From the NCBI RefSeq assembly GCF_049581445.1, contig NZ_JBAURZ010000343.1, positions 39-64,038 on the forward strand: DNA of 64,000 bases, in the 5' to 3' direction. The notes under the pieces were generated by a model. It saw only the letters and a program-made list of their open reading frames with translations, did not search any database and was not told the origin of the DNA. Shown in pieces: positions 1 to 29,236 of the stretch (position 1 is its first letter; each line of letters starts with the position of its first letter). The translations under genes and the position numbers were made by a program. The stretch is from Paraburkholderia sp. (GTDB lineage: Bacteria > Pseudomonadota > Gammaproteobacteria > Burkholderiales > Burkholderiaceae).

Positions 1-277
1 CCGGGGGCGCTCGACCCGTCACAGTGTTTGAACGCCGAGCCTGATGTGCGGTAGCTCGTCCGTTACAAAGGGATCCCGGTGGCGGTGCCCGCCACGGAAA
101 TGGCACAGGAAGATGAGCGGCGTGCCCGCTTCTGCACCGGGGAGCCTTTACGCGTAACGAATTCCGCTGGGCTGGACGAAACGGGTAGAGCGGTGCTGGG
201 TAGAAGGGTGGACCGACCCCTGCGAACCCGCAGCACCGGTCCCCCTTGGTAAAGCGTCGTGAACTGACGCCACCTGT

Positions 278-383
278 CAGAGATTGATCCTTTTGCGCTC
301 ACCTTTGATCCATTCGGGACTGGGAGAACGTAACGCCTCAACTTAAAGTTGCGGCTCCTATCCACACATCGAAGGAACCCTTC
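278..383 (+). promoter_or_regulatory. Conserved ~106-nt upstream cassette, copy A (ends at the ohr copy 1 start codon)
   Basis: Aligns without gaps to 1994..2099 (about 80% identical by hand count) and to 4550..4655. It contains direct repeats TTGATCC at 284 and 305 (21 bp start-to-start), the AT-rich block ACTTAAAGTT at 341..350, and SD-like GAAGGA. Confidence 0.6.
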
Positions 384-830
384 ATGACGAAGATCGATCA
401 AGTCCTCCAGTCAGGCAACAGTCACGCCACGGTTAATCGTGACCCCAACGTCCCGCGCGGTGAGTACGGCGCCCTTGACCTCAAGCTGTCAGCGTCCAGC
501 AATGAAGATCGCGAGTTCATCGGCACCGGACTGCACCCGAGAGCCGAGCAACTGTTTTCGGGCGCGTGGTCGGCCTGTTACATCAGCGCGTTCGAGATTG
601 CAGCCTCAATGAAGAAGGTCACGCTGCCGTCCGACTACTCCTTGGACATCCAGGTGAGCATTGGGTCGGTTGGGGCAGGCCATTGCCTTGGTGCCCAGTT
701 CACCATCCGCGCGCCGGGTCTGGCCAAGGAAGTCGTCGAGTCACTCGCGCACCAGGCCCATCAACTCTGCCCGTACTCGAAGGCTGTGCGCGGCAACATC
801 GAGGTCGGCCTGAACGTTATTACGGTGTGA
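384..830 (+). CDS. ohr: Organic hydroperoxide resistance protein Ohr (OsmC/Ohr family), copy 1, sublineage I
   Basis: 148 aa. Ohr catalytic signature: Arg in 'TVNRDP', Glu plus peroxidatic Cys in 'AEQLFSGAWSACY', resolving Cys in 'LCPYSKA'. Sublineage marker 'SIGSVGAGHCLGA'. Confidence 0.9.
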   Translation: MTKIDQVLQSGNSHATVNRDPNVPRGEYGALDLKLSASSNEDREFIGTGLHPRAEQLFSGAWSACYISAFEIAASMKKVTLPSDYSLDIQVSIGSVGAGHCLGAQFTIRAPGLAKEVVESLAHQAHQLCPYSKAVRGNIEVGLNVITV

Positions 831-910
831 TCGGATAAGCCATGCGGATTTCGCCAAATAGCTTTTGGAGAATCTGGACACCGCAAGCCTGTTAGTCACG
901 CCCATTTAAT

Positions 911-922
911 ATCGCATGCGAT
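911..922. promoter_or_regulatory. Perfect 12-bp palindrome ATCGCATGCGAT, candidate OhrR operator upstream of ohr copy 2
   Basis: The identical 12-mer recurs at 55911..55922 (upstream of ohr copy 4) and 57683..57694 (upstream of ohrR copy 2). It directly abuts the -10-like hexamer TTTAAT (905..910). Confidence 0.45.
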
Positions 923-1034
923 GACATCGTATCCGATGTATAACCGGGGATATTTACCGCCCCATGCAACGCGTGCGAGCACATGGCATGCGCTTTAAAG
1001 ACGCTTAATACCCTTATTAACGAAGGAATTCATC

Positions 1035-1481
1035 GTGGAAAAGATCGAAAAAGTTCTCGCCTCAGGCAACACCCACTCTACGGTCAATCGCGACCCCAAG
1101 CTCCAGCGCGGCGAGTTTGGCGTCTTTGACCTCAAGCTGACAGCACCCGGCGTTGAAGACGTCGAGTTCATCGCCACCGAACCGCACCCGACAGCAGAGA
1201 AGTTGTTTGCTGGCGCCTGGTCGGCCTGTTACACCACCGTGTTTGGGATTGTGGCCTCGATGAAGAAGGTTACGCTACCGGTCGACTACTCCGTGGACAT
1301 CACGGTCAACATTGGGCAGACCGGTGCCGCGTGGTTCCTCGGCGCCGAGTTTACCGTTCGTGTGCCGGGTCTGGCTCAGGACGTCGTCGAGGAACTCGCG
1401 CACCTGACTCATCAGATCTGCCCGTACTCGAAGTCCGTGCGAGACAACATCGAGGTCAGCACGCGCATCGTCACGGTGTGA
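1035..1481 (+). CDS. ohr: Ohr, copy 2, sublineage II (GTG start)
   Basis: 148 aa. Motifs: 'TVNRDP', 'AEKLFAGAWSACY', 'ICPYSKS'. Sublineage marker 'NIGQTGAAWFLGA' is shared with copy 4. SD-like GAAGGA upstream. Confidence 0.9.
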   Translation: MEKIEKVLASGNTHSTVNRDPKLQRGEFGVFDLKLTAPGVEDVEFIATEPHPTAEKLFAGAWSACYTTVFGIVASMKKVTLPVDYSVDITVNIGQTGAAWFLGAEFTVRVPGLAQDVVEELAHLTHQICPYSKSVRDNIEVSTRIVTV

Positions 1482-1620
1482 TTCGATAAGGCGCGCGTGC
1501 CACCTACGTCTTTTAACGTCGGTGACTGTGCATCCCTCCGTCGCTGGGCTGTCGTGCATCGTCGCTCTTCATGCGCCGGCCACAGCGTCGGATGGGTCGT
1601 GGTTGAGTTACTAAAAGAGG

Positions 1621-1797
1621 ATGGAAGCAATGTTCAGTCATTTAGTGATCGGCACCAACGACCTGGAAAAAGCAAAACTTTTCTACGATGCGGTGCTGGG
1701 CGCGCGCAGCCATTGTGAAGGTCTCAGCGATAACAACGAAAAGCGGCGGCGCTATGTCTATATTACCGACACCGGGCTGTTTATCCTGAGTTACTGA
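1621..1797 (+). pseudogene. VOC/glyoxalase-family gene, N-terminal fragment only
   Basis: The 58-codon ORF 'MEAMFSHLVIGTNDLEKAKLFYDAVLGARSH..RRRYVYITDTGLFILSY*' matches the first beta-alpha-beta unit of ~125-aa VOC proteins. It stops where the DUF417-remnant sequence begins. It is shorter than the ORF-track cutoff. Confidence 0.5.
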
Positions 1798-1821
1798 CCG
1801 ACGTGGATTGGCTTCAGGCCC

Positions 1822-1930
1822 GGGGTGGCTGTGGCGCTACGTCCCGTTCCTGCTGATCGCCGCATCGGTTCATTTGCTGAAGCAGCGGGATCGCTTTAGT
1901 CCTCTTACGGCAAAACCGATACATCGGTAA
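1822..1930 (+). pseudogene. 3' remnant of a DUF417 (YkgB/RclC-like) gene
   Basis: The DNA is homologous to 4237..4330. It translates to '..VPFLLIAASVHLLKQRD..'. Compare the C-terminus of the intact DUF417 gene, 'FLLKDLVLLVVSVYLLKQDLARV' (12849..13382). There is a 1-nt deletion relative to the 4237 copy. Confidence 0.4.
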
Positions 1931-1993
1931 CCACACCGAGTACGCCGCGAACCGCCGAGCGCGGATCGTCGGGAAACGGATGTCGGCTACAGG

Positions 1994-2099
1994 CAGAGAT
2001 TGCTCCTTTTGAGCGCGCCTTTGATCCATTCACGACTCGTCGAGCGTAACGCCTCAATTTAAAGTTTGGGTTCCTATTCACCCATCGAAGGAATTCATC
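1994..2099 (+). promoter_or_regulatory. Conserved ~106-nt upstream cassette, copy B (ends at the ohr copy 3 start codon)
   Basis: Repeats TTGCTCC at 2000 and TTGATCC at 2021 (21 bp apart). AT block AATTTAAAGTT. The second repeat lies 79 nt from the ATG, as in copies A and C. Confidence 0.6.
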
Positions 2100-2537
2100 A
2101 TGGAAAAGATCGAAAAAGTTCTCGCCTCAGGCGACACCCACGCCACGGTCAATCGTGACCCCAATGTCAAGCCCGGCGCCCTCGACCTCAAGCTGTCGGG
2201 TCCGGGCGTTGAAAGCATGGAGTTCCTGGCCGCCGACCTGCACCCAAGAGCCGAGCAGCTGTTTTCGGGCGCGTGGGCGGGCTGTTACATCACAAATTTC
2301 GGCAGGGTGGCCGCGATGAAGAAGGTCACGCTACCGTCCGACTATTCCGTGGACATCGACGTAAGCATTGGGTCGGCCGGTGGCGGGTATTGCCTGGGAG
2401 CCGAGTTCACCGTCCGCGTGCCGGGTCTGGCAACGGAAGTCGTCGAGGAGCTCGCACAGCTGACCCACCAGAACTGCCCGTATTCGAAGGCTGTGCACGG
2501 CAACATCGAGATCAGCATGAATATCGTCACGGTGTGA
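2100..2537 (+). CDS. ohr: Ohr, copy 3, sublineage I
   Basis: 145 aa. Motifs: 'TVNRDP', 'AEQLFSGAWAGCY', 'NCPYSKA'. Sublineage marker 'SIGSAGGGYCLGA', as in copy 1. Confidence 0.9.
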   Translation: MEKIEKVLASGDTHATVNRDPNVKPGALDLKLSGPGVESMEFLAADLHPRAEQLFSGAWAGCYITNFGRVAAMKKVTLPSDYSVDIDVSIGSAGGGYCLGAEFTVRVPGLATEVVEELAQLTHQNCPYSKAVHGNIEISMNIVTV

Positions 2538-2681
2538 TCGGATAAGGCACGCGCGTCTCATCAGACATCGTTTCACATCGGTGATTGTGCATCGCTCCGT
2601 CGCCGGGCCGTCGCGCATCGTCGCTCTTCATGCACGTCGGGCACAGCATCGGATGCCAGGCACCGGCCAAAGAGGATACAG

Positions 2682-3203
2682 ATGAAATCCAAGGATCAAC
2701 CGGCACCCACAAATCCGACGCTCGCCGACTACCTGTGTTTTGCGGTTTACTCCGCGAACCTGGCGTTCGGCAAGGGATACAAGCCGATACTAGAAGTGCT
2801 TGGGCTCACTTACACGCAATACATCACGATTGTTGCGCTTTGGGAGGGAGGCAACCAGACCGTCGGCGGTCTGGGCGAGAAGCTTTTTCTCGAATCCAAC
2901 ACGCTTACGCCGATCCTGAAGAAGCTCGAGTTGATGGGTTATCTGGAAAGGCAGCGCGATCCCGCAGACGAGCGTCAAGTGCGGGTCAAGCTCACGAAAG
3001 ACGGTCGACGGCTGCGCGAAAAAGCCCTGACTATGGATCTCTCTGAGGCGACTGGCCTCGCGCCAGACAAATTCGCTATAGTGCAGAAGGCGATCGTGGC
3101 GCTGCGGGACAATCTTATTAACTCAGTCCAAAACGGCGAAAGAGCGCTTAACGCTCGTATTGCGGCTATGAATGGGGATGTCCGACATGGAATACCAGAC
3201 TGA
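2682..3203 (+). CDS. ohrR: MarR-family organic hydroperoxide sensor/repressor OhrR, copy 1 (1-Cys type)
   Basis: 173 aa. N-terminal sensing Cys in 'DYLCFAVYSANLAF' and winged-helix 'TYTQYITIVALWE..TVGGLGEKLFLESNTLTPILKKLE'. It has only one Cys in the whole protein. It carries a ~20-aa C-terminal extension compared with copy 2. Confidence 0.85.
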   Translation: MKSKDQPAPTNPTLADYLCFAVYSANLAFGKGYKPILEVLGLTYTQYITIVALWEGGNQTVGGLGEKLFLESNTLTPILKKLELMGYLERQRDPADERQVRVKLTKDGRRLREKALTMDLSEATGLAPDKFAIVQKAIVALRDNLINSVQNGERALNARIAAMNGDVRHGIPD

Positions 3204-4203
3204 CTGGCTCACCCGGTTCATGGAACTCGTGACCGTCACCGGGAAACTGCAAACTCGGTGTGCGTTGGGAGCACCGTGGGCAAAAAAATACACCCAGGCC
3301 GGAGCTCAGGAAATACCGTATCACATCATCTTGGCCGGCAAGGCCATACTCGAGAATTCGGATGATGGTGCAACCTATGAATTACGGGCGGGCGACATCG
3401 TGTTACTGCCGCACGGTTCGGCGCATGTGTTGCACGACGGTAGCGGCGTGGCACCGGTTCCGTCCAAGGAACGTGCTTCGGGCAGTTTCCTTGTTAGCGA
3501 AAATGGTGGCACTGGCGAGGCGCTGGACATGTTGTGCGGGCGATTTTTCGTCGCGCCGCCTCATGACCGGTTAATCCGCAGCTATCTTCCGTCGGAACTC
3601 GTGGTACGCACCGAAGACATCGGCACCGCTGCACAGAGCCTGCCACAGGCCGAACGTCTGAGTCGGCTCGTCGCGCTCATGCGCGCCGAGGCGATGGACA
3701 ACGCAGTGGGCGGCGGCGCGATCCTTAACGCGCTTTCGTCTGCGCTGTTTGCGTTGACGCTGCGGGCGGCCGGTGAGGCCGGTCAGGCACGTACCGGGAT
3801 GCTGGCGCTCGCCGCTCATCCAAGGCTCGCGCCTGCGGCCGCTGCAATGTTTAACGACCCAGCTCGAGCGTGGACGCTTCCCGAACTGGCCGAAATATGC
3901 TGCATGTCGCGCGCCACGCTCATGCGGCAGTTTCAGGCCAGTCTTGGCCACTCCGTGATGGATCTGCTGACCGATATCCGAATAAGCGCCGCTGCGAACG
4001 CCCTGCGAAAATCTACATCGTCCACCGAGGCAGTTGCTGATCTCGTCGGGTACCAGTCGGTGTCTGCGTTTCGGCGCGTGTTTACTGAGCGGATGGGGAT
4101 GACGCCGGGCGACTGGCGGCAGCACGCGCTTAAGGGTGGCGCACCGCATTTATCGGATGACGAGTCAGGCGGAGTTGGGGATCGCGATCGCGCGAGCGAG
4201 TGA
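3172..4203 (+). CDS. AraC-family regulator with N-terminal cupin-type domain, RclR-like
   Basis: 343 aa. C-terminal AraC HTH: 'WTLPELAEICCMSRATLMRQFQ..SVSAFRRVFTERMGMTPGDWR'. The N-terminus 'TRCALGAPW..IPYHIILAGKA' and 'LDMLCGRFF' resemble E. coli RclR around its two redox Cys (recalled from memory). The start is uncertain (ATG at 3172, 3178 or 3187). It overlaps the ohrR stop. Confidence 0.75.
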   Translation: MGMSDMEYQTDWLTRFMELVTVTGKLQTRCALGAPWAKKYTQAGAQEIPYHIILAGKAILENSDDGATYELRAGDIVLLPHGSAHVLHDGSGVAPVPSKERASGSFLVSENGGTGEALDMLCGRFFVAPPHDRLIRSYLPSELVVRTEDIGTAAQSLPQAERLSRLVALMRAEAMDNAVGGGAILNALSSALFALTLRAAGEAGQARTGMLALAAHPRLAPAAAAMFNDPARAWTLPELAEICCMSRATLMRQFQASLGHSVMDLLTDIRISAAANALRKSTSSTEAVADLVGYQSVSAFRRVFTERMGMTPGDWRQHALKGGAPHLSDDESGGVGDRDRASE

Positions 4204-4353
4204 ATGTGGGACCACCCGGCGAGCGTCCGGGTTCGGGGTGGCTGTGGGGGCAACGTCCCGTTCCTGATGAAGGACGTCGTGCTGGTCGCTGCATCAGTTT
4301 TTTTACTGAAGCAGGATCTCGAGCGGGGCCGTGTCTCTTCGAAGAGAGCCTAA
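4204..4353 (+). pseudogene. 3' remnant of a DUF417 (YkgB/RclC-like) gene (49-codon ORF)
   Basis: Translation: '..GGCGGNVPFLMKDVVLVAASVFLLKQDLERG..'. This matches only the last ~45 residues of the intact DUF417 protein. Its ATG directly follows the AraC stop (TGAATG). Confidence 0.5.
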
Positions 4354-4549
4354 GTCGAACGGACCTTATGTGCGCCCTCCGCCACGTATCGCCCTGGTCT
4401 TTCCACGCCTGGCGGCGATGCGCCATTTCGTCCCCTTGAACGTTGTCTTGCATTGAGTGTCTGCCCCAATGCCGCGCGCCGCTGGACGTCGAAGGGGGCG
4501 TGCGCCTTTGCGGCAGGCGAATTGTCGGGAGGTGGATGCTGGTTGCAGC

Positions 4550-4655
4550 CTGAGATTGATCCTTACGAGCACGCCTTTGATGCATTCACGACTCGGCGAA
4601 CGTAATGCCTTAATTTAAAGTTTCGACTCCTAACCACGCACGGAAGTAATCCAAA
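4550..4655 (+). promoter_or_regulatory. Conserved ~106-nt upstream cassette, copy C (ends at the AhpD-like start codon)
   Basis: Repeats TTGATCC at 4556 and TTGATGC at 4577 (21 bp apart). AT block AATTTAAAGTT. The second repeat lies 79 nt from the ATG. Confidence 0.6.
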
Positions 4656-5195
4656 ATGAGCCGTATCTCCGTACCCGACGTCGCATCCGCCACTGGTGCC
4701 GTTGCCGAAGCCCATGCCGTGACCAAAAAACTGACGGGTGGAGTTGTTCCGAATCTGTTTGCCGCGGTCGGGGCTCTGTCCCCCGATGTCCTCAAGGCCT
4801 ATATGAATGCTGAAATGGTTCTTGGTGCAGGCACGATTGGCGATAAGGATACCGAAACGATCAAGGTTATCGTCAGCGAACTGAACGGCTGCGACTATTG
4901 CGTTGGCGCGCACGTCATGCTGGGGAAAATGGTGGGCCTTTCGCCAGAATCGATCAAGCAAATCCGCGCATGCAATCCCACGGGGGACGCAAAGCGTGAT
5001 GCGCTAGTGCAGTTTGTGCGGCTCATTCAGCAGAGCAGCGGCACGATCACTGTTGAGCAGTTGGCGGCAGTCAGGGCGGCCGGTTACAGCCATGAGCAAC
5101 TGGTTGAAATTGCGCTCGCGATCGCACTGACGGTGTTTACCAATACCTTCAATCGTATCAACGACACGACGCTAGACGTGCCGTACGCGGATTGA
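4656..5195 (+). CDS. AhpD-like alkylhydroperoxidase / carboxymuconolactone decarboxylase family protein
   Basis: 179 aa with the AhpD-core CxxC..H motif 'NGCDYCVGAH'. Confidence 0.8.
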   Translation: MSRISVPDVASATGAVAEAHAVTKKLTGGVVPNLFAAVGALSPDVLKAYMNAEMVLGAGTIGDKDTETIKVIVSELNGCDYCVGAHVMLGKMVGLSPESIKQIRACNPTGDAKRDALVQFVRLIQQSSGTITVEQLAAVRAAGYSHEQLVEIALAIALTVFTNTFNRINDTTLDVPYAD

Positions 5196-5306
5196 TGTAG
5201 AGGGCGACGCAACGAAGCTGAGTGCGTTCGACGGTTCGACCGTCAGGTCGTCCGTCAGCAACGAAACCTGTAATCAAGTGCATCTGCACCCAATTGGACT
5301 GTCACT

Positions 5307-8300
5307 ATGTGGATCGTCAGGATCGCACTCAGAAGACCCTATACCTTTATCGTCCTCGCGCTGCTGCTCGGCATAATCGGGCCGCTCACCGTGCTCCGTA
5401 CGCCGACGGATATCTTTCCCAATATCAACATTCCGGTCGTCAGCGTCATCTGGAACTATAGCGGCCTGCCACCGAACGAGATGGGCAACCGAATCACCGG
5501 CAACTTCGAGCGGTTCACGCTCATCACGGTTAATAATATCGAGCATATCGAATCGCAGTCGCTCTCGGGTGTTGCGGTTATTAAGTACTTTTTTCGTCCC
5601 GGCACGAACATCGATCTGCCGGTGAGTCAGTTGACGGCGGGTGCACAAACGTGGCTCAAGCAGTTGCCGCCTGGCATCACGCCGCCGCTTATCGTCTCCT
5701 ATAACGCCTCCAGCGTCCCCATCATCCAGCTGGCGCTTTCCAGTAAGACGATTCCGGAGCAGGGTCTTTTCGACCTCGCCAACAATTTCGTCAGGACTCA
5801 GCTCGTTGGCGTTGCGGGCGCATCCATTCCGTATCCGTACGGGGGACGTACACGCCAGGTGCAGGTCGATCTCGACCAGCGGCTGCTGCAGGCGCGCGGC
5901 GTTTCGGCCGATGACGTCGTCAACGCGATCAACGCGCAGAACCTGATCATTCCGGCCGGCACCGAGAAGGTAGGCGAATTCGAGTACAACATCAAACTGA
6001 ACGGTAGCCCGGTTGCTGTTCGGGACCTCAACGACCTGCCGATCAAAACGGTCAACGGTACGCTCGTCTACGTCCACGACGTGGCGCATGTGCGCGACGG
6101 GGCGGCCCCGCAGACCAACATCGTCCGCGTCGACGGCCAGCACGCGTCGCTAATGACGATCCAGAAGACAGGCACCGCGTCGACCCTCGATATCATCGGC
6201 CAGATCAAGGCGTTGCTGCCATCCGTGCGAAACGCGTCACCGTCCGCGCTCGACATCCAGCCGATCGGCGATCAATCGGTATTCGTCAAGTCGGCCATCA
6301 GCGGCGTGGTCCGTGAAGGAGTGATAGCCGCGGCGTTGACCGCGCTCATGATCCTACTGTTCCTCGGAAGCTGGCGCTCGACGCTCATCATCACCATTTC
6401 GATCCCGCTGTCGGTGCTGTGCTCGCTGATCGGGCTGTCGCTTCTCGGCGAGACGATCAACATCATGACGCTGGGGGGGCTGGCGCTCGCCGTCGGGATT
6501 CTGGTCGACGATGCCACGGTCGCCATCGAAAGCATCAATGCCCATCTCGAGCGTGGCGCTGAAGTCGAGACTGCCATCCTGTCAGGCGCTCAGGAAATCG
6601 CCGTGCCGGCGTTGGTCGCTACACTGTGCATATGCATAGTTTTTGCCCCGATGTTCTTCCTGCCCGGCGTCGCGCGCTATCTCTTCGTGCCGCTGGCGGA
6701 GGCGATCGTCTTCGCCATGCTCGCGTCCTATGTGCTCTCCCGCACGCTGATCCCCACCCTCGCGAAGTACTGGCTGCGGATGCACGAGAGGCACGACGCG
6801 GAGCACGGCTCGCGCAATGCGTTCGTCAGACTGCAGGATGCCTTCCAGCGTGGCTTCGAGGCACTGCGGTTGCGCTACCACCAGCTCCTGGCGCGCATGA
6901 TTGCACGGCGCCGCGTCTTCATCCCAGTGTTTCTCGGCTGCATGCTGGCATCACTTGCGCTCGTTCCGTGGCTCGGCAACAACTTCTTTCCGTCGGTCGA
7001 CAGCGGTCAGATCAAGCTGCACCTGCGCGGCCATGCCGGCCTGCGGGTCGAGGAAACCGCGCGACTCACTGATGAGGTCGAGGCGACCGTTCGAAAAACC
7101 ATTCCGGGATCCGAAATATCTAGTGTCGTCGACAATATCGGCCTGCCGGTGAGCGCCCTCAACCTCTCCTACAGCAACTCCGCGCCGACTACCGCCGCCG
7201 ATGCCGACATTCTTATCACGCTGAAAGAGAAGCATCGTCCGACCGCGGACTATGTGCGTCAGTTGCGGGCATCGTTGCCGCAGGCGTATCCGGGCGTGAG
7301 CTTCGCTTTCCTGCCGGCCGACATCGTCAGCCAGATCCTGAACTTCGGTGCCCCGGCGCCTATCGATATCCAGGTCAGCGGATTCAACGTTGAGGCCAAC
7401 AACGCGTTCGCGCAGCAACTGCTGGCGCAGGTGCGGCACGTGTCGGGCATTGCCGATGTGCGCATCCAGCAGGACCTCGACTATCCGGAGTTCGACGTCA
7501 AGGTCGACCGCAGCCGCGCGCAGGATGTGGGCCTGTCCCAGCGCGAGGTGGCCAACGACCTGCTGTTCACGCTGACGGGCAGCTTCCAGACCAACCCGAC
7601 GTTCTGGCTCGATCCGAAAAACGGCGTCTCGTATCCGATCGTCACCCAGACGCCGCAGCCGCAGCTCGATTCCCTGGACACGCTTCGCAACGTGCCGCTC
7701 ACGGCCGCTGGCGGCCAGCCGAATATCCTGGGGGCAGTGAGCACGATCACGCGCAGCGTGGGACCGGCTGTGGTCTCGCACTACAACGTGAAGCCGACGA
7801 TCGACATCTACGCGGCCGTGCAGGACCGCGATCTCGGTGGTGTTGCAACCGACGTCAACAAGATCGTCGAAGCGGCGAAAACGAATCTGCCGCGCGGCTC
7901 GTCCATCGTGGTGCGCGGCCAGGTACAGACGATGAAGACGTCCTTCACGGGCCTCTACGGCGGTCTCGCTTTCGCGATCCTGCTCGTCTATCTGCTGATC
8001 GTCATCAATTTCCAGTCCTGGACCGACGCCTTCATCATCATCACGGCGCTGCCCGCCGCGCTGGCAGGCATCGTCTGGATGTTGTTCCTGACCCGCACGC
8101 CGCTCTCCGTGCCGGCGCTCACCGGCGCAATCATGAGCGTCGGCGTCGCGACCGCAAACAGCATCCTGGTGGTGAGCTTCGCCCGCGATCGTCTGCTTGA
8201 GGTGGGCGGCGACGCGTCGAGGGCAGCGACGGACGCCGGCTTCGCCCGCTTTCGCCCCGTGCTGATGACGGCACTCGCGATGGTCATCGGCATGGTGCCG

Positions 8301-8501
8301 ATGGCACTGGGCCTCGGCGACGGCGGCGAACAGAACGCGCCGCTTGGCCGCGCTGTCATCGGCGGCCTTGCTTTCGCCACCGTTGCCACGCTGTTTCTCG
8401 TGCCCGCTGTGTTCAGCCTGATCCACGGCGGTGAGAAGAAGGCGAGGGCACCTGGCTCCACGCAACAACGAGTATTGGATAGGGAGTTTGAACATGAGTG
8501 A
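5307..8501 (+). CDS. RND efflux transporter, inner-membrane permease subunit (AcrB-like), system 1
   Basis: 1064 aa. N-terminus 'IALRRPYTFIVLALLL'. TM4 proton-relay motif 'GGLALAVGILVDDATVAIE'. It has the two-large-loop, 12-TM layout. Confidence 0.9.
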   Translation: MWIVRIALRRPYTFIVLALLLGIIGPLTVLRTPTDIFPNINIPVVSVIWNYSGLPPNEMGNRITGNFERFTLITVNNIEHIESQSLSGVAVIKYFFRPGTNIDLPVSQLTAGAQTWLKQLPPGITPPLIVSYNASSVPIIQLALSSKTIPEQGLFDLANNFVRTQLVGVAGASIPYPYGGRTRQVQVDLDQRLLQARGVSADDVVNAINAQNLIIPAGTEKVGEFEYNIKLNGSPVAVRDLNDLPIKTVNGTLVYVHDVAHVRDGAAPQTNIVRVDGQHASLMTIQKTGTASTLDIIGQIKALLPSVRNASPSALDIQPIGDQSVFVKSAISGVVREGVIAAALTALMILLFLGSWRSTLIITISIPLSVLCSLIGLSLLGETINIMTLGGLALAVGILVDDATVAIESINAHLERGAEVETAILSGAQEIAVPALVATLCICIVFAPMFFLPGVARYLFVPLAEAIVFAMLASYVLSRTLIPTLAKYWLRMHERHDAEHGSRNAFVRLQDAFQRGFEALRLRYHQLLARMIARRRVFIPVFLGCMLASLALVPWLGNNFFPSVDSGQIKLHLRGHAGLRVEETARLTDEVEATVRKTIPGSEISSVVDNIGLPVSALNLSYSNSAPTTAADADILITLKEKHRPTADYVRQLRASLPQAYPGVSFAFLPADIVSQILNFGAPAPIDIQVSGFNVEANNAFAQQLLAQVRHVSGIADVRIQQDLDYPEFDVKVDRSRAQDVGLSQREVANDLLFTLTGSFQTNPTFWLDPKNGVSYPIVTQTPQPQLDSLDTLRNVPLTAAGGQPNILGAVSTITRSVGPAVVSHYNVKPTIDIYAAVQDRDLGGVATDVNKIVEAAKTNLPRGSSIVVRGQVQTMKTSFTGLYGGLAFAILLVYLLIVINFQSWTDAFIIITALPAALAGIVWMLFLTRTPLSVPALTGAIMSVGVATANSILVVSFARDRLLEVGGDASRAATDAGFARFRPVLMTALAMVIGMVPMALGLGDGGEQNAPLGRAVIGGLAFATVATLFLVPAVFSLIHGGEKKARAPGSTQQRVLDREFEHE

Positions 8502-9657
8502 AAATCAACTGCAGGGGCGCAAGCTGCTGCCGCTGTGCGGCGCGTTCCTCGTGATCGGCACGATCGCCTGGGGCATCTGGTCGCGTAACAGTGCCGAGGC
8601 GGCGCTCGTCAAGGTAACCGACGACGAGGCGCTGCCGACCGTCTCCGTGATCACGGCCGCCGCCGGCCCCGCCGACGAAGCGCTCGTGCTGCCCGGCACG
8701 GTGCAGGCCGAATCCGAGACGCCGATCTACGCGCGCACTAGCGGCTACCTGAAGCGCTGGTACACCGACATCGGTACGCGCGTGAAGGCCGGGACGCTCC
8801 TGGCCGAGATCGACTCGCCCGAAGTCGACCAGCAGCTCCGCCAGGCCAAGGCTGACCTGACAACAGCAAACGCGAACAACCTCATTGCGCAGCAAACGGC
8901 GAAACGCGTCCACGCGTTGCTGCCGACGCAATCGGTCTCAGCCGAGCAGGATGATCAGGCTACCAGCGATGCCACGGCCAAGGCCGCGCTCGTGGCCGCC
9001 GCTGAGGCGAACGTCGAGCGTCTGACTCAACTGGTCGGGTTCGAGCGGGTCGTGGCGCCCTATGACGGCGTCGTCACGGCGCGCGAAACCGACGTCGGCA
9101 ACCTCATCAATGCCGGCAGCGGCAGCGGGCCAGAGCTGTTCCGCGTTGCCGACACCAGCAAGCTCAGGGTCTATGTCCAGGTGCCGCAGAGTTACGCGGC
9201 GCTCGTGAAGCCCGGCGTCACGGCTACGCTGCAGTTCCCGGAATATCCGGGACGGACTTTCCCGGCGAACTTCACGCGCTCCGCCGACGCAATCAATCCG
9301 GGAGCGCGGACCCTGCTCGTCGAGCTCGAAGCCGACAACGCGGGCGGTGAGCTGTTTCCAGGCGGCTATACCGAGGTCCACTTCAAGGTGCCGGTCGCGC
9401 AGCGCGGCGTGAACATTCCGGCCAACGCGCTGCTGTTTCGCGCCGAAGGGGTGCGCGTGGCAAGCCTCGCAAGTAGCAGTGGCCTCGTCACGCTGCATAC
9501 GGTCACGCTAGGCCGCGATTTCGGTCCGACAGTCGAAGTCACGACCGGGGTGGCGCCAGGCGAGAAGATCATTCTCAACCCTCCTGCTTCACTCGCTGAC
9601 GGCGAGCGCGTGCGGGAGCAGATCGATCGCAATCCGGCGCCAGGAGGCCGTTCATGA
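8494..9657 (+). CDS. RND efflux periplasmic adaptor (MFP) subunit, system 1
   Basis: Start chosen at ATG 8494 (SD GGGAG; it overlaps the RND stop). N-terminal TM anchor. Lipoyl-like hairpin 'RTSGYLKRWYTDIGTRVKAGTLLAEIDSPEVDQQL'. Confidence 0.85.
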   Translation: MSENQLQGRKLLPLCGAFLVIGTIAWGIWSRNSAEAALVKVTDDEALPTVSVITAAAGPADEALVLPGTVQAESETPIYARTSGYLKRWYTDIGTRVKAGTLLAEIDSPEVDQQLRQAKADLTTANANNLIAQQTAKRVHALLPTQSVSAEQDDQATSDATAKAALVAAAEANVERLTQLVGFERVVAPYDGVVTARETDVGNLINAGSGSGPELFRVADTSKLRVYVQVPQSYAALVKPGVTATLQFPEYPGRTFPANFTRSADAINPGARTLLVELEADNAGGELFPGGYTEVHFKVPVAQRGVNIPANALLFRAEGVRVASLASSSGLVTLHTVTLGRDFGPTVEVTTGVAPGEKIILNPPASLADGERVREQIDRNPAPGGRS

Positions 9658-11087
9658 AGCGACTTCTGAAATTCAGCGTACCGCTCGTCGCGTGCCTGCT
9701 CTGCGCCTGTGATTTCGCGCCGACGTACGTGCCGCCACCCGTGGCGACGCCGATCGACTTCAAGGAGTCCGCGGGCTGGACGCTTGCGGCGCCAAAGGAT
9801 TCGGCGCCACGCGGTCAATGGTGGCGGATCTTTCAGGACCCGGCGCTCGACCGTCTGGAAGACCAGGTGAGCGCCGCGAACCAGAACCTGAAGGTTGCCG
9901 TCGCCCAGTACGACGAAGCACGCGCCGACGCAAGGACGGCGCGGGCCGACTATTACCCCACGCTCGACGCGAGCGGGTCCGCATCGCGCGAGGGCCTGTC
10001 GCGCGAGGTGGCGAATCCGTTGCCGAACCGATCCTTCAAGAACTACAGCCTCGGACTCGACTTCGATTACGAAATCGACGTCTGGGGCCGCGTGCGCAAC
10101 CAGGCCAAGGCCGGCGTGGACCGGGAACAGGCCAGCGCCGCCGATCTCGCAACGGTGGATCTGAGCCTCCATGCCGAGCTCGCCAGCGACTACTTGATCC
10201 TGCGCGGCGACGATGCCGAACAGGACGTGCTCGACCGGACGGTCGAAAACTATCGCAAAGCGCTGGAGCTTACGCAGGCAAGGTTCAACATCGGGTACGC
10301 GGCAAAGCCGGACGTCTCCGCTGCAGAGGCGCAATTCGAAAGCGCCACGACGCAGGCCACCGAAATCCGGCTGAAGCGCACGAACCTCGAACACGCCATC
10401 GCGATCCTCACGGGACAGCCGCCGGCGGGCTTCGCGTTGCCTGAAAACAAGCTCGATGCAACGCCGCCTGACATCGCGCCGGTACTGCCGGCCGCTCTGC
10501 TCGAGCGGCGTCCCGATGTCGCGGCGGCGGAACGCCGGGTCGCGGCCGCCAATGCGGACATCGGCGTCGCCAAGGCCGCCTATTACCCGGCCTTCAATCT
10601 GAACGCGCTTCTCGGTGTCGAGGCCGCCATGCCAAACCACCTCTTCACGGCGCCTGCAGAAGCGTGGTCACTGGGCCCTTCCGCCGTCGTGAACCTCCTC
10701 GACGGCGGCAAGCGTCGCGCGCTCAATGACCGCGCCCGTGCCTCCTATGAGGAGGAGGCGGCGCAATACCGCCAGACTGTGCTCGATGCGTACGGCGAGG
10801 TCGAGGATAGTCTCGCGTCGCTGCGCCTCCTCGCTCGCGAGGCCACCAGCCAGCAGGCCGCCGTGACCGCCGCCGCCGATTCGACAGCACAGGCGACGCA
10901 TCTCTATTCCGGAGGGCTGGCCAACTACTACAACGTCATCGAGGCGCAGAACATCGAACTTACCGCGCGGCTGACGCAGGTCGACATCACGACGCGCCGG
11001 ATGACCGCCGACGTCTCGCTTATCAAGGCGCTTGGCGGCGGCTGGCAGCGCAAGGACGCGCTGGCATCCGGCACCGCTACCGACTAG
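9654..11087 (+). CDS. RND efflux outer-membrane factor lipoprotein (NodT family), system 1
   Basis: 477 aa. Lipobox 'LLCAC'. Two-repeat OMF architecture. C-terminal 'LIKALGGGW'. ATGA overlap with the MFP stop. Confidence 0.9.
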   Translation: MKRLLKFSVPLVACLLCACDFAPTYVPPPVATPIDFKESAGWTLAAPKDSAPRGQWWRIFQDPALDRLEDQVSAANQNLKVAVAQYDEARADARTARADYYPTLDASGSASREGLSREVANPLPNRSFKNYSLGLDFDYEIDVWGRVRNQAKAGVDREQASAADLATVDLSLHAELASDYLILRGDDAEQDVLDRTVENYRKALELTQARFNIGYAAKPDVSAAEAQFESATTQATEIRLKRTNLEHAIAILTGQPPAGFALPENKLDATPPDIAPVLPAALLERRPDVAAAERRVAAANADIGVAKAAYYPAFNLNALLGVEAAMPNHLFTAPAEAWSLGPSAVVNLLDGGKRRALNDRARASYEEEAAQYRQTVLDAYGEVEDSLASLRLLAREATSQQAAVTAAADSTAQATHLYSGGLANYYNVIEAQNIELTARLTQVDITTRRMTADVSLIKALGGGWQRKDALASGTATD

Positions 11088-11138
11088 TTGCCTTGCTTCA
11101 TCGCCGAAACCATCCCTCTTTGCAGGCGGACGCCGAGT

Positions 11139-12194
11139 ATGGATACCATCAGAAACATGAAAGCCTTTGTCGCAGTGGCGGACACGGGCAGCTTTACGAA
11201 AGCGGCACATCAGCTGTCAGCGACGCTGCCTGTGATATCGCGCGTGGTGACCGAACTCGAAGGCCATCTGCGCACCCGGCTCCTGAACCGCACGACGCGT
11301 CGAGTCGCACTGACCGAAGCTGGCCAGCGGTACTTAGAGCGTTGCCGCGAGATTCTGGCATCCGTCGCTGCAGCCGAGGCGGAGGCTTCGGACGCCCACG
11401 CCATTCCGGCAGGGACACTCAGGATTCATGCGATGTCGAGTGTCGGCCAGAACTACGTCATACCTGCGATTGCCGCCTATCAAGCGCGCTATCCGGGAGT
11501 CACCGTTGACCTGACGCTGTCGCAGCACGTGCCGGACCTCCTGGAAGAAGGCTACGACGTGGCAATCCGGTTGTCGCCCGATGCGCTGCCGGATTCGAAC
11601 TTCGTGTCGCTTCATCTGGGGTCTATCCGCACGGTCCTGTGCGCCGCGCCGCGCTATCTGGAGGTCCATGGGATGCCTCGCACCGTGGAAGATCTTGCCA
11701 GCCACTCGTGTCTGCAACTGGCGCTGCCCGCGTTTGCGTCAAACCGATGGCTGCTCATGGGTCAGGACGGAGAGCGCGAATTCCAGCTCCCCGCCAGCCG
11801 GTTCAAGGTAAATATGTCCGACGCGATGGCGGTGGCATTGCACGAAGGCATGGGCATCGGAACTCTTCCAACGCTCGCCATCCATTCCGCTCTGCAAACG
11901 GGATCGCTGGTCAGGGTGTTGCCCGACTATCACCTGCAGGAGTTCAATGTCTACGCGGTCTACGCTTCCCGGCAATATCTCGATGCAAAGATCAGGACGT
12001 GGATCCAGTTCGCCCGAAAATGGATAACCGACGCGATACGCGCAGACGATATGGTCATTGCCGGTACGCCAGGGAAAGATGTTGAACCGAGATTGCCGCG
12101 AACAATGGCAAGCTTGCGCGATGGCAGCTCGGCGGACTTCGCGCGGCCCGTTTCCACCCCTTCAATGCCGAGTAGCGTGCTGAGAAGTATGTAG
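11139..12194 (+). CDS. LysR-family transcriptional regulator
   Basis: HTH: 'MDTIRNMKAFVAVADTGSFTKAAHQLSATLPVISRVVTELEGHLRTRLLNRTTR'. Start set at ATG 11139. It has an unusually long C-terminal tail (~50 aa). Confidence 0.85.
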   Translation: MDTIRNMKAFVAVADTGSFTKAAHQLSATLPVISRVVTELEGHLRTRLLNRTTRRVALTEAGQRYLERCREILASVAAAEAEASDAHAIPAGTLRIHAMSSVGQNYVIPAIAAYQARYPGVTVDLTLSQHVPDLLEEGYDVAIRLSPDALPDSNFVSLHLGSIRTVLCAAPRYLEVHGMPRTVEDLASHSCLQLALPAFASNRWLLMGQDGEREFQLPASRFKVNMSDAMAVALHEGMGIGTLPTLAIHSALQTGSLVRVLPDYHLQEFNVYAVYASRQYLDAKIRTWIQFARKWITDAIRADDMVIAGTPGKDVEPRLPRTMASLRDGSSADFARPVSTPSMPSSVLRSM

Positions 12195-12848
12195 AAAGTC
12201 CGGGGGGAGAGGACACCCCGCTGGGTACGGCAGCTAAGGCAGTTCAGGTTTTGTTTGCTCGTAGGCAGAGAGTATAGGCGGCTACCAGACCGCGTTCGCT
12301 CGAACCGGTCGATGCGCGACGAATGGCTCGAATATATTCAGAATTACTAAATTTATCATAAATATGATTGTTGTGAACCCGATATGTAAAAGCCAAGTTG
12401 AAAGTCAGCTGGTCCATTGAGGATACGTTTCCATCGCGGAGCCGATTCACAGAGGCTACGTGTCCATGTTCAGTGGGCAATGGACCCATTTCGTCGACCC
12501 CGCACAAAAGAGCGTCGCCGCGCTGGTATCAACTTGCCGTTGTTGCCGAAGCAGCAGACCCGGCGTTGCTGCTGCTCGCGGCCGGGCAGGTCCTATCTGC
12601 GATCCGGCTGGGCGGTTAAGGAGGCGGCTCAATCAATCGATTTGGTCGAGTATTGCACCTGTGGTTTGATACGTTTAAGCATGCCATTGAGCAAATTAAG
12701 CATCGCAAGTATCAATTCTGACACATACAATGAACTCACTAGCGAAAGGTAACTAATGAAAGGAGTGCAAAATGTTTCACATCGAAATCCCCGCACTTGA
12801 GGTCGTCACCGGCGCCGAAGTGCTCACAGCTCCGACATGGAGGAAATC

Positions 12849-13382
12849 ATGAATTACTTCGTCGATATACTGGGTCGTTCAGGTCTTCTGAAACGAGACT
12901 TCGACTACCATCTGCTCCGCGCCTCGATGGTGATTATCTTCGCCTGGTTCGGGTACGACAAATGGTTTCAGACCGAAATCATAGACCTGATTCCTTTAAT
13001 CAAGCACGGGCCGCTTATCTTTTGGGTGCTTCCGTTGTTAGGCATTAAAGGTACAAGCATTTTTTTAGGAGCGTCAGAATGGACTTATGGCTCGTTACTG
13101 CTCTTGGGATTCTGGAATAAGAGATTGGGAGCGCTGGGTGCTTTCGGTTCTACCTTGACGTTCCTGGCTACCTTCACGATCATGCCATTTGCTCCTGGCG
13201 CGTGGGATGCTGCCGCTGGAGGGTTTCCAGCGATGACAATAGTTTCGGGCTTCCTCTTGAAGGATCTCGTTTTGCTGGTGGTCTCTGTCTACCTGCTCAA
13301 GCAAGACCTTGCCCGAGTGGTCGAGGCCCGGTGCTATGCCAATCAACGAGACCCCGCTCGCTCTCGCAACCTGACGGCGTAA
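12849..13382 (+). CDS. DUF417 family membrane protein (YkgB/RclC-like), intact copy
   Basis: About 177 aa and four hydrophobic helices. C-terminus 'GFPAMTIVSGFLLKDLVLLVVSVYLLKQD' resembles E. coli YkgB/RclC (recalled). The start could instead be 12837. Confidence 0.75.
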   Translation: MNYFVDILGRSGLLKRDFDYHLLRASMVIIFAWFGYDKWFQTEIIDLIPLIKHGPLIFWVLPLLGIKGTSIFLGASEWTYGSLLLLGFWNKRLGALGAFGSTLTFLATFTIMPFAPGAWDAAAGGFPAMTIVSGFLLKDLVLLVVSVYLLKQDLARVVEARCYANQRDPARSRNLTA

Positions 13383-18299: not shown

Positions 18300-20204
18300 A
18301 TGGTCGCGAATCGTCAACAAACGGATAAGAGTAGCGGTGGTGTCGTCAAACAGTATGCAGTGCGAGACTTCTTCCGCAGGCCGGACAAGCATTCGTTCAC
18401 AATCGCTCCGGATGGTCGGCACCTTTCGTTTCTCGCGCGGCACTCTGGCCGCGAGAACGTTTTCGTGCAGGGGATCGACGCCGATGGCGCTCCCGTAGGC
18501 GAGCCGCGCCCCTTGACCAACGAGACAGAACGCGACGTGCCCGGCCACGCCTGGAAGGGCAACGATCAGATTCTGTTCGTCAAGGATTTTGGAGGCGATG
18601 AGAACTTCCACGTGCTTTCGGTTCCGATCGATGGTAGCGAGCCGCGCGATCTGACGCCGTACGACGGCGTCAAGGCCAGCATTGTCGACGACCTCAGGGA
18701 CGACGACCGCCACGTGTTGATCCAGATGAATCGTCGCGACCCGCAAGTCTTCGACGTGTTCCGCGTTGACGTCCTAACCGGCGAACTGGCGCCGATCGCC
18801 GAGAATCCAGGCAATGTCATGGAATGGATGACGGATCACGAAGGGCGGCTGCGTGTCGCGGTTGCGTCGGATGGCGTCAACCGCACGCTGCTCTACCGGG
18901 ACGCCGAGACCGACCCTTTCCGGGCGGTTCTGACAACGGACTTCCGTGAGACGGTCTCGCCGTTGTTCTTTACCTTCGATGACAAACGGCTGTACGTTTT
19001 GTCGAATCGAGGTCGAGACAAAACCGCAATCTTCGAATTCGATCCCGCGACGGGCGAGGAGGGCGCGTTACTGTTCGAGACCGCGCATGTCGACGTGAGC
19101 GGACTCGCGTATTCGAAACATCGACGTGTGCTGACGCTTGCGTCATACGTTGACGATCGGCTTCATCGCCATTACTTCGACAGTCGTGCTCAGGGCATCA
19201 GGGCCGATCTTGAGCGCCAGTTTGCGGATCAGGAGGTGACCCTTACGAGCTTTACACGCGATGAGTCGCGTGCGATCGTGCGTGCCGAGAGCGATCGGTC
19301 GGCCGGCTCGGTCTGGATTTACGACATCGAGCGCCGACAACTTGCGAGGCTCGCGGACATGATGCCCTGGCTCGATCCGGCTGATCTGGTGCCGATGTTG
19401 CCGGTTCGCTTCACGGCACGCGACGGTTTGCAAATCAACGGATATCTGACGTTGCCTGCGGGCTTCGATCTCAAGCAAAAATTCGCCGAACCGTTGCCGT
19501 TGATCGTCAATCCGCACGGTGGTCCTTGGGCGAGAGACATGTGGGGCTTCAATGCCGAAGCGCAACTGCTTGCAAACCGCGGGTATGCGGTACTGCAACT
19601 CAATTTCCGTGGCTCGACGGGATACGGAAGGGCTTTCTGGGAAGCCAGTTTCGGGCAATGGGGCCGCGCGATGCAGAATGATATCGACGACGGTATCGAC
19701 TGGCTCGTGTCGCAAGGGGTCGTCGACCCCGCGCGCGTCGGAATCTACGGGGCAAGTTATGGAGGCTACGCGACCCTGGCGGGCGTCGCATTCACGCCGG
19801 ACCGATATGCGGCTGCGGTTGACTATGTCGGCGTATCGAACCTCTTTACTTTGCTCGAATCCATGCCTCCGTACTGGAAGCCGTTGCTCGACATGATGTA
19901 CGAGATGATCGGCAATCCGCAGACCGAGGAAGGCAAGCAGACACTGCACGATGCGTCGCCGCTGTTCTTCGTGGACCGGATCGTGACACCGCTCTTCGTT
20001 GCGCAAGGCGCCAACGATCCGAGAGTCAAACAGGCCGAGAGCGATCAGATCGTCGACGCTTTGCGGGCGCGCGGTGTCGATGTCAAATACATGCTCAAGG
20101 AGAATGAAGGACACGGGTTTCAAAACGAAGAGAACCAGTTCGAGTTCTATGAAGCGATGGACGCGTTCCTTGCCGAGCATCTCGGCGGTGCTTTGCGGAA
20201 GTGA
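18300..20204 (+). CDS. S9-family serine peptidase (prolyl oligopeptidase / dipeptidyl aminopeptidase type)
   Basis: N-terminal beta-propeller region plus a C-terminal alpha/beta hydrolase. Nucleophile 'YGASYGGY', Asp 'GANDPRV', His 'EGHGF'. Start set at ATG 18300 (GGAGG 5 nt upstream). Confidence 0.85.
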
Positions 20205-20343
20205 CGGCATCGGCATGGGACTTCGCATCAGCCGCTCGATCGTGGAGTCGCATGGCGGGCGCTTGTGGGTCACCGATCTCCCCGCCGGGCAGGGCGGCGC
20301 AACGTTTCACTTCACGTTGCCCGCGACGGTTTCGGGTTGTTGA
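20203..20343 (+). pseudogene. C-terminal remnant of a sensor histidine kinase (HATPase_c G2 box to stop)
   Basis: Translation: '[40 protein letters not shown]'. Only about 46 codons remain. They are fused to the S9 peptidase stop codon and overlapped by the convergent OMF 3' end. Confidence 0.6.
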
Positions 20344-28087: not shown

Positions 28088-28260
28088 TTAGTATTCCTTT
28101 ATAAATGCACCGCGCCGCTCCGATGCTTCGGCCGTTTCAAAATCACCCTCGGTCCAGACAGCGCGGAGCGTGCGAATGAGGTCTACATTCGCGTCCAGCA
28201 ATGTGTTCGAAGCTGCATTACTCTGCGTTCCGATAAACGCGCAGCGCATTACGATTTGAT
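28088..28260 (-). pseudogene. 3' remnant of a third OMF gene
   Basis: '..[22 protein letters not shown]' and its DNA (28150..28240) align to the 3' end of OMF system 2 (20350..20440, '[21 protein letters not shown]'). No upstream OMF sequence remains. Confidence 0.55.
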
Positions 28261-29129: not shown

Positions 29130-29236
29130 TCAATTTCACGAGCTCGCAATATAAGCAGTACATTGCATATCGATCTAATGCTCGCCTTGATCACTACCGC
29201 GACAAAACCCGGCGGAATCGGGCATGGGGGAAGACC

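Follow-up and report, generated by a model that had tools for sequence, protein, structure and literature searches.

A repeated promoter cassette and its predicted RclR-like activator ahead of antioxidant genes in Paraburkholderia

Introduction

The closest described relatives of the system considered here are the RclR regulators of Escherichia coli and Pseudomonas aeruginosa. In E. coli, RclR activates rclABC, of which rclC is a DUF417 gene, and its activating disulfide is formed by two cysteines, Cys21 and Cys89 (PMC7464077). In P. aeruginosa, RclR activates the adjacent AhpD-like gene rclX, and whereas autoregulation of rclR has been reported for E. coli, it is reported absent in P. aeruginosa (PMC7950407). 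Our literature search, with the primary RclR paper outside its reach, found no published RclR operator or binding motif. We analyzed a stretch of 64,000 nucleotides from a Paraburkholderia sp. (contig NZ_JBAURZ010000343.1 of assembly GCF_049581445.1), referred to at its full length as the window, in which three copies of a ~106-nt cassette stand ahead of two ohr genes and a CMD-family (AhpD-like) gene, with a gene for an RclR-like regulator between the second and third copies. We consider it likely, judging from sequence comparisons, that the cassette is a promoter module driven by this neighboring regulator and copied before several antioxidant genes.

The likeness to the P. aeruginosa system lies in the regulator, a Cupin_6/AraC protein with the motif GEALDMLCG and both cysteines, in its place beside a gene for an AhpD/CMD-family CxxC protein, and in an apparent oxidant-defense role. 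The two systems differ in that P. aeruginosa rclR and rclX are divergent across a 117-bp gap, whereas the order is tandem here, in Trinickia and in Achromobacter. In addition, RclX is a 112-aa CMD protein, ~32% identical over 72 residues to the 179-aa protein encoded here, and PMC7950407 describes neither a multi-copy promoter nor Ohr, RND pump or DUF4148 targets for P. aeruginosa RclR. E. coli RclR resembles the window regulator in its family, in the aligned Cys21 and Cys89, in having a DUF417 gene as a target (here predicted, through a site at 12666) and in autoregulation, which we propose here for copy B of the cassette. It differs in sequence and in its targets, which here would be Ohr, the CMD protein and an RND pump. 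From the described RclR systems, the one here departs in having regulator, operator and target in tandem, a CMD protein of the 179-aa subfamily, a multi-copy promoter module, Ohr paralogs and (in relatives) DUF4148 genes as recruits, and the RND pump behind the CMD gene.

Two other kinds of circuit invite comparison. Like the system proposed here, the OhrR-Ohr circuit governs Ohr genes; the cluster also includes an ohrR gene, and an OhrR-type palindrome stands before both ohr2 and ohr4 of the window. The cassette, in contrast, has no such palindrome and implies activation of the AraC type, not derepression of the MarR type; ohr1 and ohr3 appear to have moved to a second, AraC-type circuit. Two direct 17-bp half-sites spaced by 21 bp and ending beside the -35 position, as in araI1/araI2 and XylS Pm, are the signature of the AraC family. 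From general knowledge of araBAD and Pm, the cassette shares with them the paired direct 17-bp half-sites, the 21-bp periodicity, the stronger distal site and the lack of a usable -35; its half-sites would also span ~-72 to -35 relative to the predicted start. It differs in its half-site sequences and in the effector domain of the presumed activator, a Cupin_6 redox sensor and not a sugar or benzoate binder.

Promoter layout and conservation

The three segments at 278-383, 1994-2099 and 4550-4655 (copies A, B and C, all on the forward strand) align with one another without gaps, and an ATG directly follows each of them, at 384 (ohr1), 2100 (ohr3) and 4656 (the CMD/AhpD-like gene). Pairwise identity is 81-83% for A and B, 76-78% for A and C, and 79-80% for B and C. 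The heptamer TTGATCC occurs at 284, 305, 2021 and 4556, with the variants TTGCTCC at 2000 and TTGATGC at 4577; in all three copies the two heptamers are 21 bp apart, and the ATG lies 79 nt from the start of the proximal one. Thus far, the analysis agrees with a first-pass annotation of the same sequence, which had described three gap-free segments ending at start codons, the heptamer positions and distances, and an identity of about 80% for A and B. Homology reaches further, to 245-386, 1961-2102 and 4517-4658, that is, 142 nt at 70-77% identity (repeat search, family D4). An nhmmer profile recovered each copy at E ~1e-34 and no fourth full copy in the window. A single heptamer repeat within 106 nt is unremarkable alone; the composite pattern TTGA-N17-TTGA-N35-TAMART has three matches in the window against 0.00 expected (100 shuffles). 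Copy B escapes this strict pattern because its distal box is TTGC.

Common to the copies is an AT-rich block, TTAAAGTT, which reads AACTTAAAGTT in copy A. The first-pass annotation had recognized the block, but its pattern, (A/C)(A/T)TTTAAAGTT, does not fit copy A, and we can now refine the block as the holder of a predicted -10 hexamer, TAAAGT. The OhrR-type palindrome TCGCATGCGA, by exact search of the window, is absent from the cassettes and occurs only at 912 (before ohr2), 55912 (before ohr4) and 57684 (before a second ohrR), consistent with the earlier proposal of a circuit separate from OhrR.

Homologous promoters occur in Paraburkholderia, Caballeronia, Trinickia, Burkholderia, Achromobacter and Bradyrhizobium, and only part of the cassette is kept at this cross-genus depth, with the other bases drifting. 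The conserved parts are a distal 17-bp half-site, TTGATCCnnTnGAGCAn, of which the heptamer is merely the first box; a weaker proximal half-site whose TTGA starts exactly 21 bp past the distal one; and a -10-like hexamer (TAAAGT, TACAAT or TAAGTT) 32 nt past the proximal heptamer (31 in Bradyrhizobium), in which T, A and the final T are invariant in all seven lineages aligned. These lineages, whose more divergent promoters were found by gene-context look-ups of homologues of the CMD protein and the regulator, give the in-register consensus TTGATCC..t.gAGCA.....TTGA....tt...G.CTcg, followed by a variable stretch and TAAAgT. The earlier reading of 21-bp direct repeats as AraC-type geometry is strengthened by the persistence of this register through Trinickia, Burkholderia and Achromobacter to the alphaproteobacterium Bradyrhizobium.

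Nothing TTGACA-like lies 17 bp upstream of the -10 hexamer, and a consensus scan predicted no standard sigma-70 promoter in 1-5400, as is expected of an activator-dependent promoter. If transcription starts ~7 nt past the hexamer, the half-sites would lie at ~-72 to -56 and ~-51 to -35. With such a start, the layout would be that of an araI1/araI2-type, activator-dependent AraC-family promoter.

In copy A, the distal half-site TTGATCCTTTTGCGCTC (284..300; position weight matrix (PWM) score 22.4; predicted ~-72 to -56) is followed 21 bp on by the weaker proximal half-site TTGATCCATTCGGGACT (305..321; PWM 8.5; predicted ~-51 to -35). The predicted -10, TAAAGT, stands at the conserved position (344..349), and from the start inferred near 356 a 5' untranslated region (UTR) of ~28 nt with the Shine-Dalgarno sequence GAAGGA would lead to the ohr1 ATG at 384. 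Copy B has its distal half-site TTGCTCCTTTTGAGCGC at 2000..2016 (PWM 22.7), its proximal half-site TTGATCCATTCACGACT at 2021..2037 and its predicted -10, TAAAGT, at 2060..2065, with a start inferred near 2072. The corresponding elements of copy C are TTGATCCTTACGAGCAC at 4556..4572 (PWM 26.1), TTGATGCATTCACGACT at 4577..4593 and TAAAGT at 4616..4621, with a start inferred near 4628. All lie on the forward strand.

A fourth site, also on the forward strand and missed in the first-pass annotation, lies at 12666..12731. It consists of TTGATACGTTTAAGCAT (12666-12682), N4, TTGAGCAAATTAAGCAT (12687-12703) and a -10, TACAAT (12726-12731), exactly 32 nt past the proximal heptamer. Its half-sites are identical at 12 of 17 positions, 21 bp apart, and score 22.7 and 19.5. 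In other words, the layout is that of the cassette, in surrounding sequence that is unrelated. The PWM scan of the window found no further paired sites beyond these four. Single, unpaired matches to the distal model at 5530-5546 (TTAATAATATCGAGCAT, in the RND permease gene) and 60416-60432 (CTGAGCATTTCGAGCAC) have neither a partner site nor a -10 at the expected distances and are probably due to chance.

Upstream of the distal repeat, the copies form two subtypes with 35-45 nt of extra homology (241-283, and 1961-1999 with 4517-4555, in the window). Subtype I, GGTAAAGCGTCGnGAACTGACGCCACCTGTCA, comprises copy A and copies in relatives (L004, L005, L007b); subtype II, GTCGGGAnnnGGATGnnGGnTnCAG, comprises copies B and C and one from a relative (L007c). 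Both contain a GGnnAAnCGTCG box that is not conserved in other genera. Some copies also have an inverted repeat centered on the -10 region, as in copy A (335-355), where GCCTCAACTT and AAGTTGCGGC are complementary at 9 of 10 positions, and in a minus-strand metagenome copy at a contig end (L012, ~20-41), with the perfect 7-bp arms GCCTCAA-TTTAAAG-TTGAGGC. Other genera do not keep this repeat, at which a second factor, a repressor, might bind.

Other ways of reading the conserved motifs were considered. We tried the proximal TTGAnn as a sigma-70 -35 element and rejected it: the hexamer 17-18 nt on varies (CGTAAC, TATCAA, GCTCAG, GATCGC and others) and never combines A at position 2 with T at position 6, and TAAAGT was preferred as the -10. 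Alternatively, the cassette could be a promoter for an extracytoplasmic function (ECF) sigma factor of the RpoE/ChrR type (ECF11) that responds to singlet oxygen or peroxide stress, with the proximal TGATCC as its -35 and CGTAA as its -10. The ECF11 consensus is TGATCC-N16-CGTA, and the regulons include oxidative-stress genes (PMC5507510, PMC4336711). Copies A and B do carry TGATCC-N17-CGTA, which has three matches in the window against 0.42 expected. Counter to this, the spacer is 17 and not 16, copy C reads TGATGC, and both elements vary within Paraburkholderia; in other cassettes the proximal heptamer becomes TTGAGCC, TTGACCC or TTGATAC while CGTAAC becomes CGCAAC, CGTCAC, TGTAAC or CGCGAC. 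Trinickia violacea, B. cepacia, Achromobacter and Bradyrhizobium have no CGTA there, though they keep the repeats and TAAAGT. None of the 20 window open reading frames (ORFs) scanned with Pfam, in a window that is partly annotated, is a sigma or anti-sigma factor. Given that neither TGATCC nor CGTA is conserved in the wider copy set, we dropped the ECF11 promoter as highly improbable.

A further reading is that the cassette acts mainly as RNA, as a 5' leader that controls translation through pairing of CCTTT tracts in its two repeats with GAAGGA, or as a riboswitch-like element. In its favor, the distal repeat contains TCCTTTCGA, which is complementary to TCGAAGGA of the ribosome-binding site, an extra A in one relative (L001) perfects the match, the changed ribosome-binding region of another (L003) matches the second repeat, and copy A folds better than shuffled sequences (z = -2.7). 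However, Rfam yielded no match at E up to 1, the RNAalifold consensus is weak (-7.6 kcal/mol, with a double change in 1 of 15 pairs), and Trinickia and Achromobacter have lost the CCTTT tracts but kept the repeat spacing and TAAAGT. With a conserved -10 hexamer internal to the element, the repeats would normally be outside the transcript. We regard a principal role as RNA as very unlikely.

The neighboring regulator

The regulator gene lies on the forward strand at 3187..4203; its longest ORF starts at 3172, and the public annotation (338 aa) implies 3187. Pfam places a Cupin_6 sensor domain (PF12852, E = 8.3e-32) at residues 11-199 and a C-terminal AraC-type double helix-turn-helix behind it (HTH_18, E = 1.9e-18; HTH_AraC, E = 2.1e-13). 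An identical protein (100%) is encoded on a 64,054-bp contig of a Paraburkholderia sp. metagenome-assembled genome. Identity to RclR is 27% for the E. coli protein and, over the full length, 36.6% for that of P. aeruginosa. The equivalents of both redox cysteines (Cys25 and Cys117, counted from the 3187 start) align in BLASTP and are invariant in an alignment of eight sequences that includes the E. coli and P. aeruginosa proteins. Genes of the kinds controlled by RclR are linked to it. A CMD gene lies past the regulator gene in the window, with a DUF417 remnant and cassette C between, and directly after it in T. violacea (L015) and Achromobacter spanius (L027). DUF417 genes or remnants are found at 12849 and 4204 in the window and in the T. 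violacea locus. No RclA or RclB homologue lies beside the sites in the window. Based on domain structure, conserved cysteines and target types, we assign the window regulator to the RclR family.

Across the 13 sampled loci, a Cupin_6/AraC gene lies within a few kb of the element in 12 (the window, L001, L003, L006, L007, L009, L012, L015, L016, L027, L028 and L029). The Cupin_6 domain and the redox cysteines uphold the earlier description of the AraC-type regulator upstream of copy C as RclR-like, and this linkage supports its proposed part in the circuit.

It could be argued that the regulator gene is a bystander and that another protein binds the repeats, such as the product of the LysR gene at 11088-12194, a response regulator or OhrR. 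At one site in relatives (L010/L011), the neighbor is a divergent LysR gene and a Cupin_6 gene is missing within 6 kb. Both in the window and in L012, the RND operon is followed by a LysR gene, and OmpR/PhoB-type regulators also use direct repeats. Arguing against this, T. violacea, Achromobacter and Bradyrhizobium have the site filling the short gap after the Cupin_6/AraC gene, and neither a LysR nor a response-regulator gene recurs consistently among these three loci. The site also lacks the dyad symmetry of LysR- and MarR-type sites, the OhrR palindrome is different and sits elsewhere, and two 17-bp half-sites at 21 bp beside the -35 are, as is generally known, an AraC-family signature. We consider control by another regulator unlikely.

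Copies and loci in relatives

Combining a pattern scan of reference genomes, blastn, profile searches and gene-context look-ups, we found ten further places in Paraburkholderia and Caballeronia loci, ahead of ohr, CMD or DUF4148 genes (near-identical metagenome contigs L012-L014 counted once). The DUF4148 targets are small secreted proteins. The hosts are Paraburkholderia sp. PGU19, P. ginsengiterrae (four copies on one contig), P. phenazinium and P. azotifigens, together with Paraburkholderia and Caballeronia metagenome-assembled genomes and metagenome contigs; blastn of the 142-nt cassette against PLSDB returned one relative only. The distance from copy to start codon is nearly fixed. The module has thus been placed ahead of unrelated genes and not solely duplicated together with ohr. 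The first-pass proposal of spread by segmental duplication is therefore right in part, with the promoter also copied by itself before the unrelated CMD and DUF4148 genes.

Cassettes ahead of unrelated genes in different genomes can reach 92-95% identity. Within the window, the ohr paralogs are 70-77% identical at third codon positions, slightly below the 76-83% of the cassettes. Together, these values suggest gene conversion or selection toward a single consensus. For function, the footprint across genera is the stronger argument.

More divergent versions come from other genera. In Trinickia mobilis (L009), a cassette-like element with the proximal heptamer TTGACAC lies before a CMD gene ~0.6 kb past the regulator, with a GCV_H gene between. 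In T. violacea, TTGAGCC-N14-TTGAGCG-N32-TAAAGT occupies the whole 97-bp gap between the regulator and CMD genes, and the TGA stop of the regulator lies inside the distal heptamer. The gene order there, regulator, operator, CMD and DUF417, is probably close to the ancestral unit. The B. cepacia complex element (L016), TTGATCCTTTTGAGCAT-N4-ATGGCGA...-N32-TAAAGT, stands before a CMD gene beside the regulator; that of A. spanius, TTGATCC-N14-TTGATAT-N32-TAAAGT, lies in a 96-bp gap between the regulator and CMD genes; and that of Bradyrhizobium (L028), ATGATCCTTTTGAGCAC-N4-TTGATCA...-N31-TAAGTT, lies between the regulator and a nitroreductase-CMD pair. For T. violacea, Achromobacter and Bradyrhizobium alike, the gap of 96-111 bp right after the regulator gene is taken up entirely by the element, and the half-site sequence is near-identical between alpha- and betaproteobacteria.

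These patterns bear on the idea that the cassette is functionless, either what is left of a coding gene after decay or a small mobile repeat that recent duplications took with them. DUF417 remnants do lie just upstream of copies B and C, subsets of copies share the 35-45 nt of extra upstream homology, and the identity among cassettes barely exceeds that of the ohr third codon positions. Counter to this, the element is the entire gap between intact genes in the three genera just named, its half-site is nearly unchanged across alpha- and betaproteobacteria, and each copy is directed at a start codon that lies a set distance away. The copies lack terminal inverted repeats and target duplications, and identity reaches 95% even between those that precede unrelated genes of different genomes. 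We consider the lack of a function the least probable of the explanations weighed here. As we read it, the cassette is an ordinary kind of control region, with a binding-site layout that is clear and conserved in distant bacteria.

Several observations weigh against control by an RclR-like activator as set out above. The best NCBIfam model for the window regulator is RclR (NF040475), at 123.7 bits and below the equivalog cut-off of 400; by this score it is a relative of RclR and not an equivalog. Scored with the distal model, the proximal half-sites reach 3.6-9.0, against 22-26 for the distal ones, and the B. cepacia proximal half-site opens with ATGG and not TTGA. Conservation within Paraburkholderia extends over all 100 nt, including the spacer, for which half-sites and a -10 are insufficient as a full explanation; this could reflect recent copying, gene conversion or an extra factor. 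At the L010/L011 locus, the PWM scan found the full layout beside the LysR gene, away from any Cupin_6 gene, and near a 60%-identical homologue in Pseudomonas (L017) it found no recognizable site. Lastly, the rclX promoter of P. aeruginosa, whose dependence on RclR is experimental, bears a weak likeness to the motif, ATGAGCCGATC versus TTGAGCCGATC, with no TAnnnT at the expected distance.

The P. aeruginosa rclR-rclX locus (L018-L022, L026) was drawn from metagenome contigs via a published primer (PMC7950407 supplement). We treat its partial distal box ATGAGCCGATC, which is near the distal box of T. violacea, as a lead only. Shortly before rclX, its 117-bp gap also has a 10-bp repeat in tandem, CCAGACTGGT/CGAGACTGGT, that is absent from the cassette. 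Likewise a lead is the E. coli K-12 rclA-rclR gap (L008, 6083-6111), where TGATATTTT occurs twice, 20 bp apart, each opening with (T/C)TGAT; as a control for this gap, a 9-mer repeat at 18-23 bp spacing arose in 48 of 5,000 shuffles. This pair, which begins with the same TGAT box as the sites in the window, may be an RclR operator.

Proposed mechanism and predicted regulon

Under the reading that we favor, each cassette would comprise an entire sigma-70 promoter of the activator-dependent kind and a short 5' UTR, with the proximal half-site abutting the expected -35 position and a 28-nt leader with a GAAGGA ribosome-binding site up to the ATG. The product of the Cupin_6/AraC gene at 3187-4203 would be the activator. 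If it works as RclR does, reactive chlorine or some other thiol-reactive oxidant would oxidize its two conserved cysteines, and a dimer would then occupy both half-sites and recruit RNA polymerase. The first-pass annotation had assigned no input to the cassettes; the input is very probably reactive chlorine or a thiol-reactive oxidant sensed by the RclR-like protein. The oldest arrangement was probably regulator gene, operator and CMD gene, which T. violacea and Achromobacter still have. The module was copied before two ohr paralogs in the Paraburkholderia lineage of the window, and before DUF4148 genes in relatives; the CMD gene of the window now heads an RND pump operon.

The predicted targets fit RclR regulons because CMD (rclX-like) and DUF417 (rclC-like) genes sit by the sites. 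Copy A is placed ahead of ohr1 (384..830) and copy B ahead of ohr3 (2100..2537), both identified by domain search as Ohr/OsmC-family peroxiredoxin genes on the forward strand. A gene for an OhrR-like MarR regulator (2682..3203, forward strand, domain search) lies 3' of ohr3 and overlaps the start of the AraC-type regulator gene, and no terminator-like site was found between ohr3 and the ohrR and regulator genes. Given the overlap and the lack of a terminator-like site, copy B may drive all three genes, and they are probably co-transcribed from it, which would place the regulator gene under positive feedback.

Copy C is followed by the gene for the 179-aa AhpD-like CMD-family protein, with a CxxC motif (CDYC), at 4656..5195, and then by RND genes at 5307..11087, all on the forward strand: a permease (5307-8501), a membrane-fusion protein (~8431-9657) and an outer-membrane factor (9654-11087). 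The CMD-RND gene order is the same in relatives. What remains of the 3' end of another DUF417 (RclC-like) gene lies at 4204..4353 on the forward strand (tblastn with the window DUF417 protein, E = 8.8e-6), and a weaker homologous remnant was found by tblastn at ~1799-1930, ahead of copy B.

The intact DUF417/RclC-like gene (12849-13382, forward strand; Pfam DUF417, E = 5e-21; 25% identical to E. coli RclC, E = 5e-10) is a predicted target of the regulator through the 12666 site. It is preceded on the same strand by a 26-codon ORF, MFHIEIPALEVVTGAEVLTAPTWRKS (12772-12852), with its own ribosome-binding site and an end, ATGA, that overlaps the DUF417 start. This arrangement suggests translational coupling of the two; the short product may serve as a leader peptide or as a small protein partner.

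The predicted regulon in the window thus comprises two Ohr paralogs, the AhpD-like protein with the RND pump and the DUF417 protein, with DUF4148 proteins added in relatives. A division of the paralogous ohr genes between OhrR repression and AraC-type activation would explain why four ohr copies are kept. The regulon would have grown by the copying of whole promoters rather than by point mutation. The analysis offers a concrete operator and promoter model for a widespread, unstudied branch of RclR-like oxidant sensors, and the motif can be used for regulon annotation in Burkholderiaceae, Alcaligenaceae and rhizobia.

More speculatively, and with considerable doubt, we should consider the possibility that TTGATCCnnTnGAGCAn-N4-TTGAn13-N15-TAAAGT is the operator of a large, uncharacterized RclR-like subfamily in beta- and alphaproteobacteria that senses another oxidant or an electrophile. 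In Paraburkholderia, such a subfamily would have taken on Ohr, DUF4148 envelope proteins and the RND pump with the CMD protein by module copying. The full-length conservation of the module would then mark a second layer of control, for example a repressor over the -10 or an anti-Shine-Dalgarno leader in read-through transcripts.

Other features of the window

The LysR gene (11088-12194) follows the RND operon. Past the stop codons of ohr2 and ohr3, a 69-nt segment (1506-1574 and 2565-2633; family D7) is 87% identical and part of the duplicated unit. Past ohr2, a truncated VOC/glyoxalase-like ORF of 55 aa (1630-1797) has a weak Ble-like_N match; relatives have a full VOC gene there. Further oxidant-defense genes encode a 1-Cys peroxiredoxin (37807-38466), a thioredoxin-like protein (54398-55012), the fourth Ohr (55978-56424), MsrA (56946-57512) and the second OhrR (57738-58205). 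Short direct-repeat families D6, D8 and D10 (72-84% identity) join 20046-20517 and 28143-29850, ~7.8-9.8 kb apart, and probably stem from paralogous genes of a second RND system.

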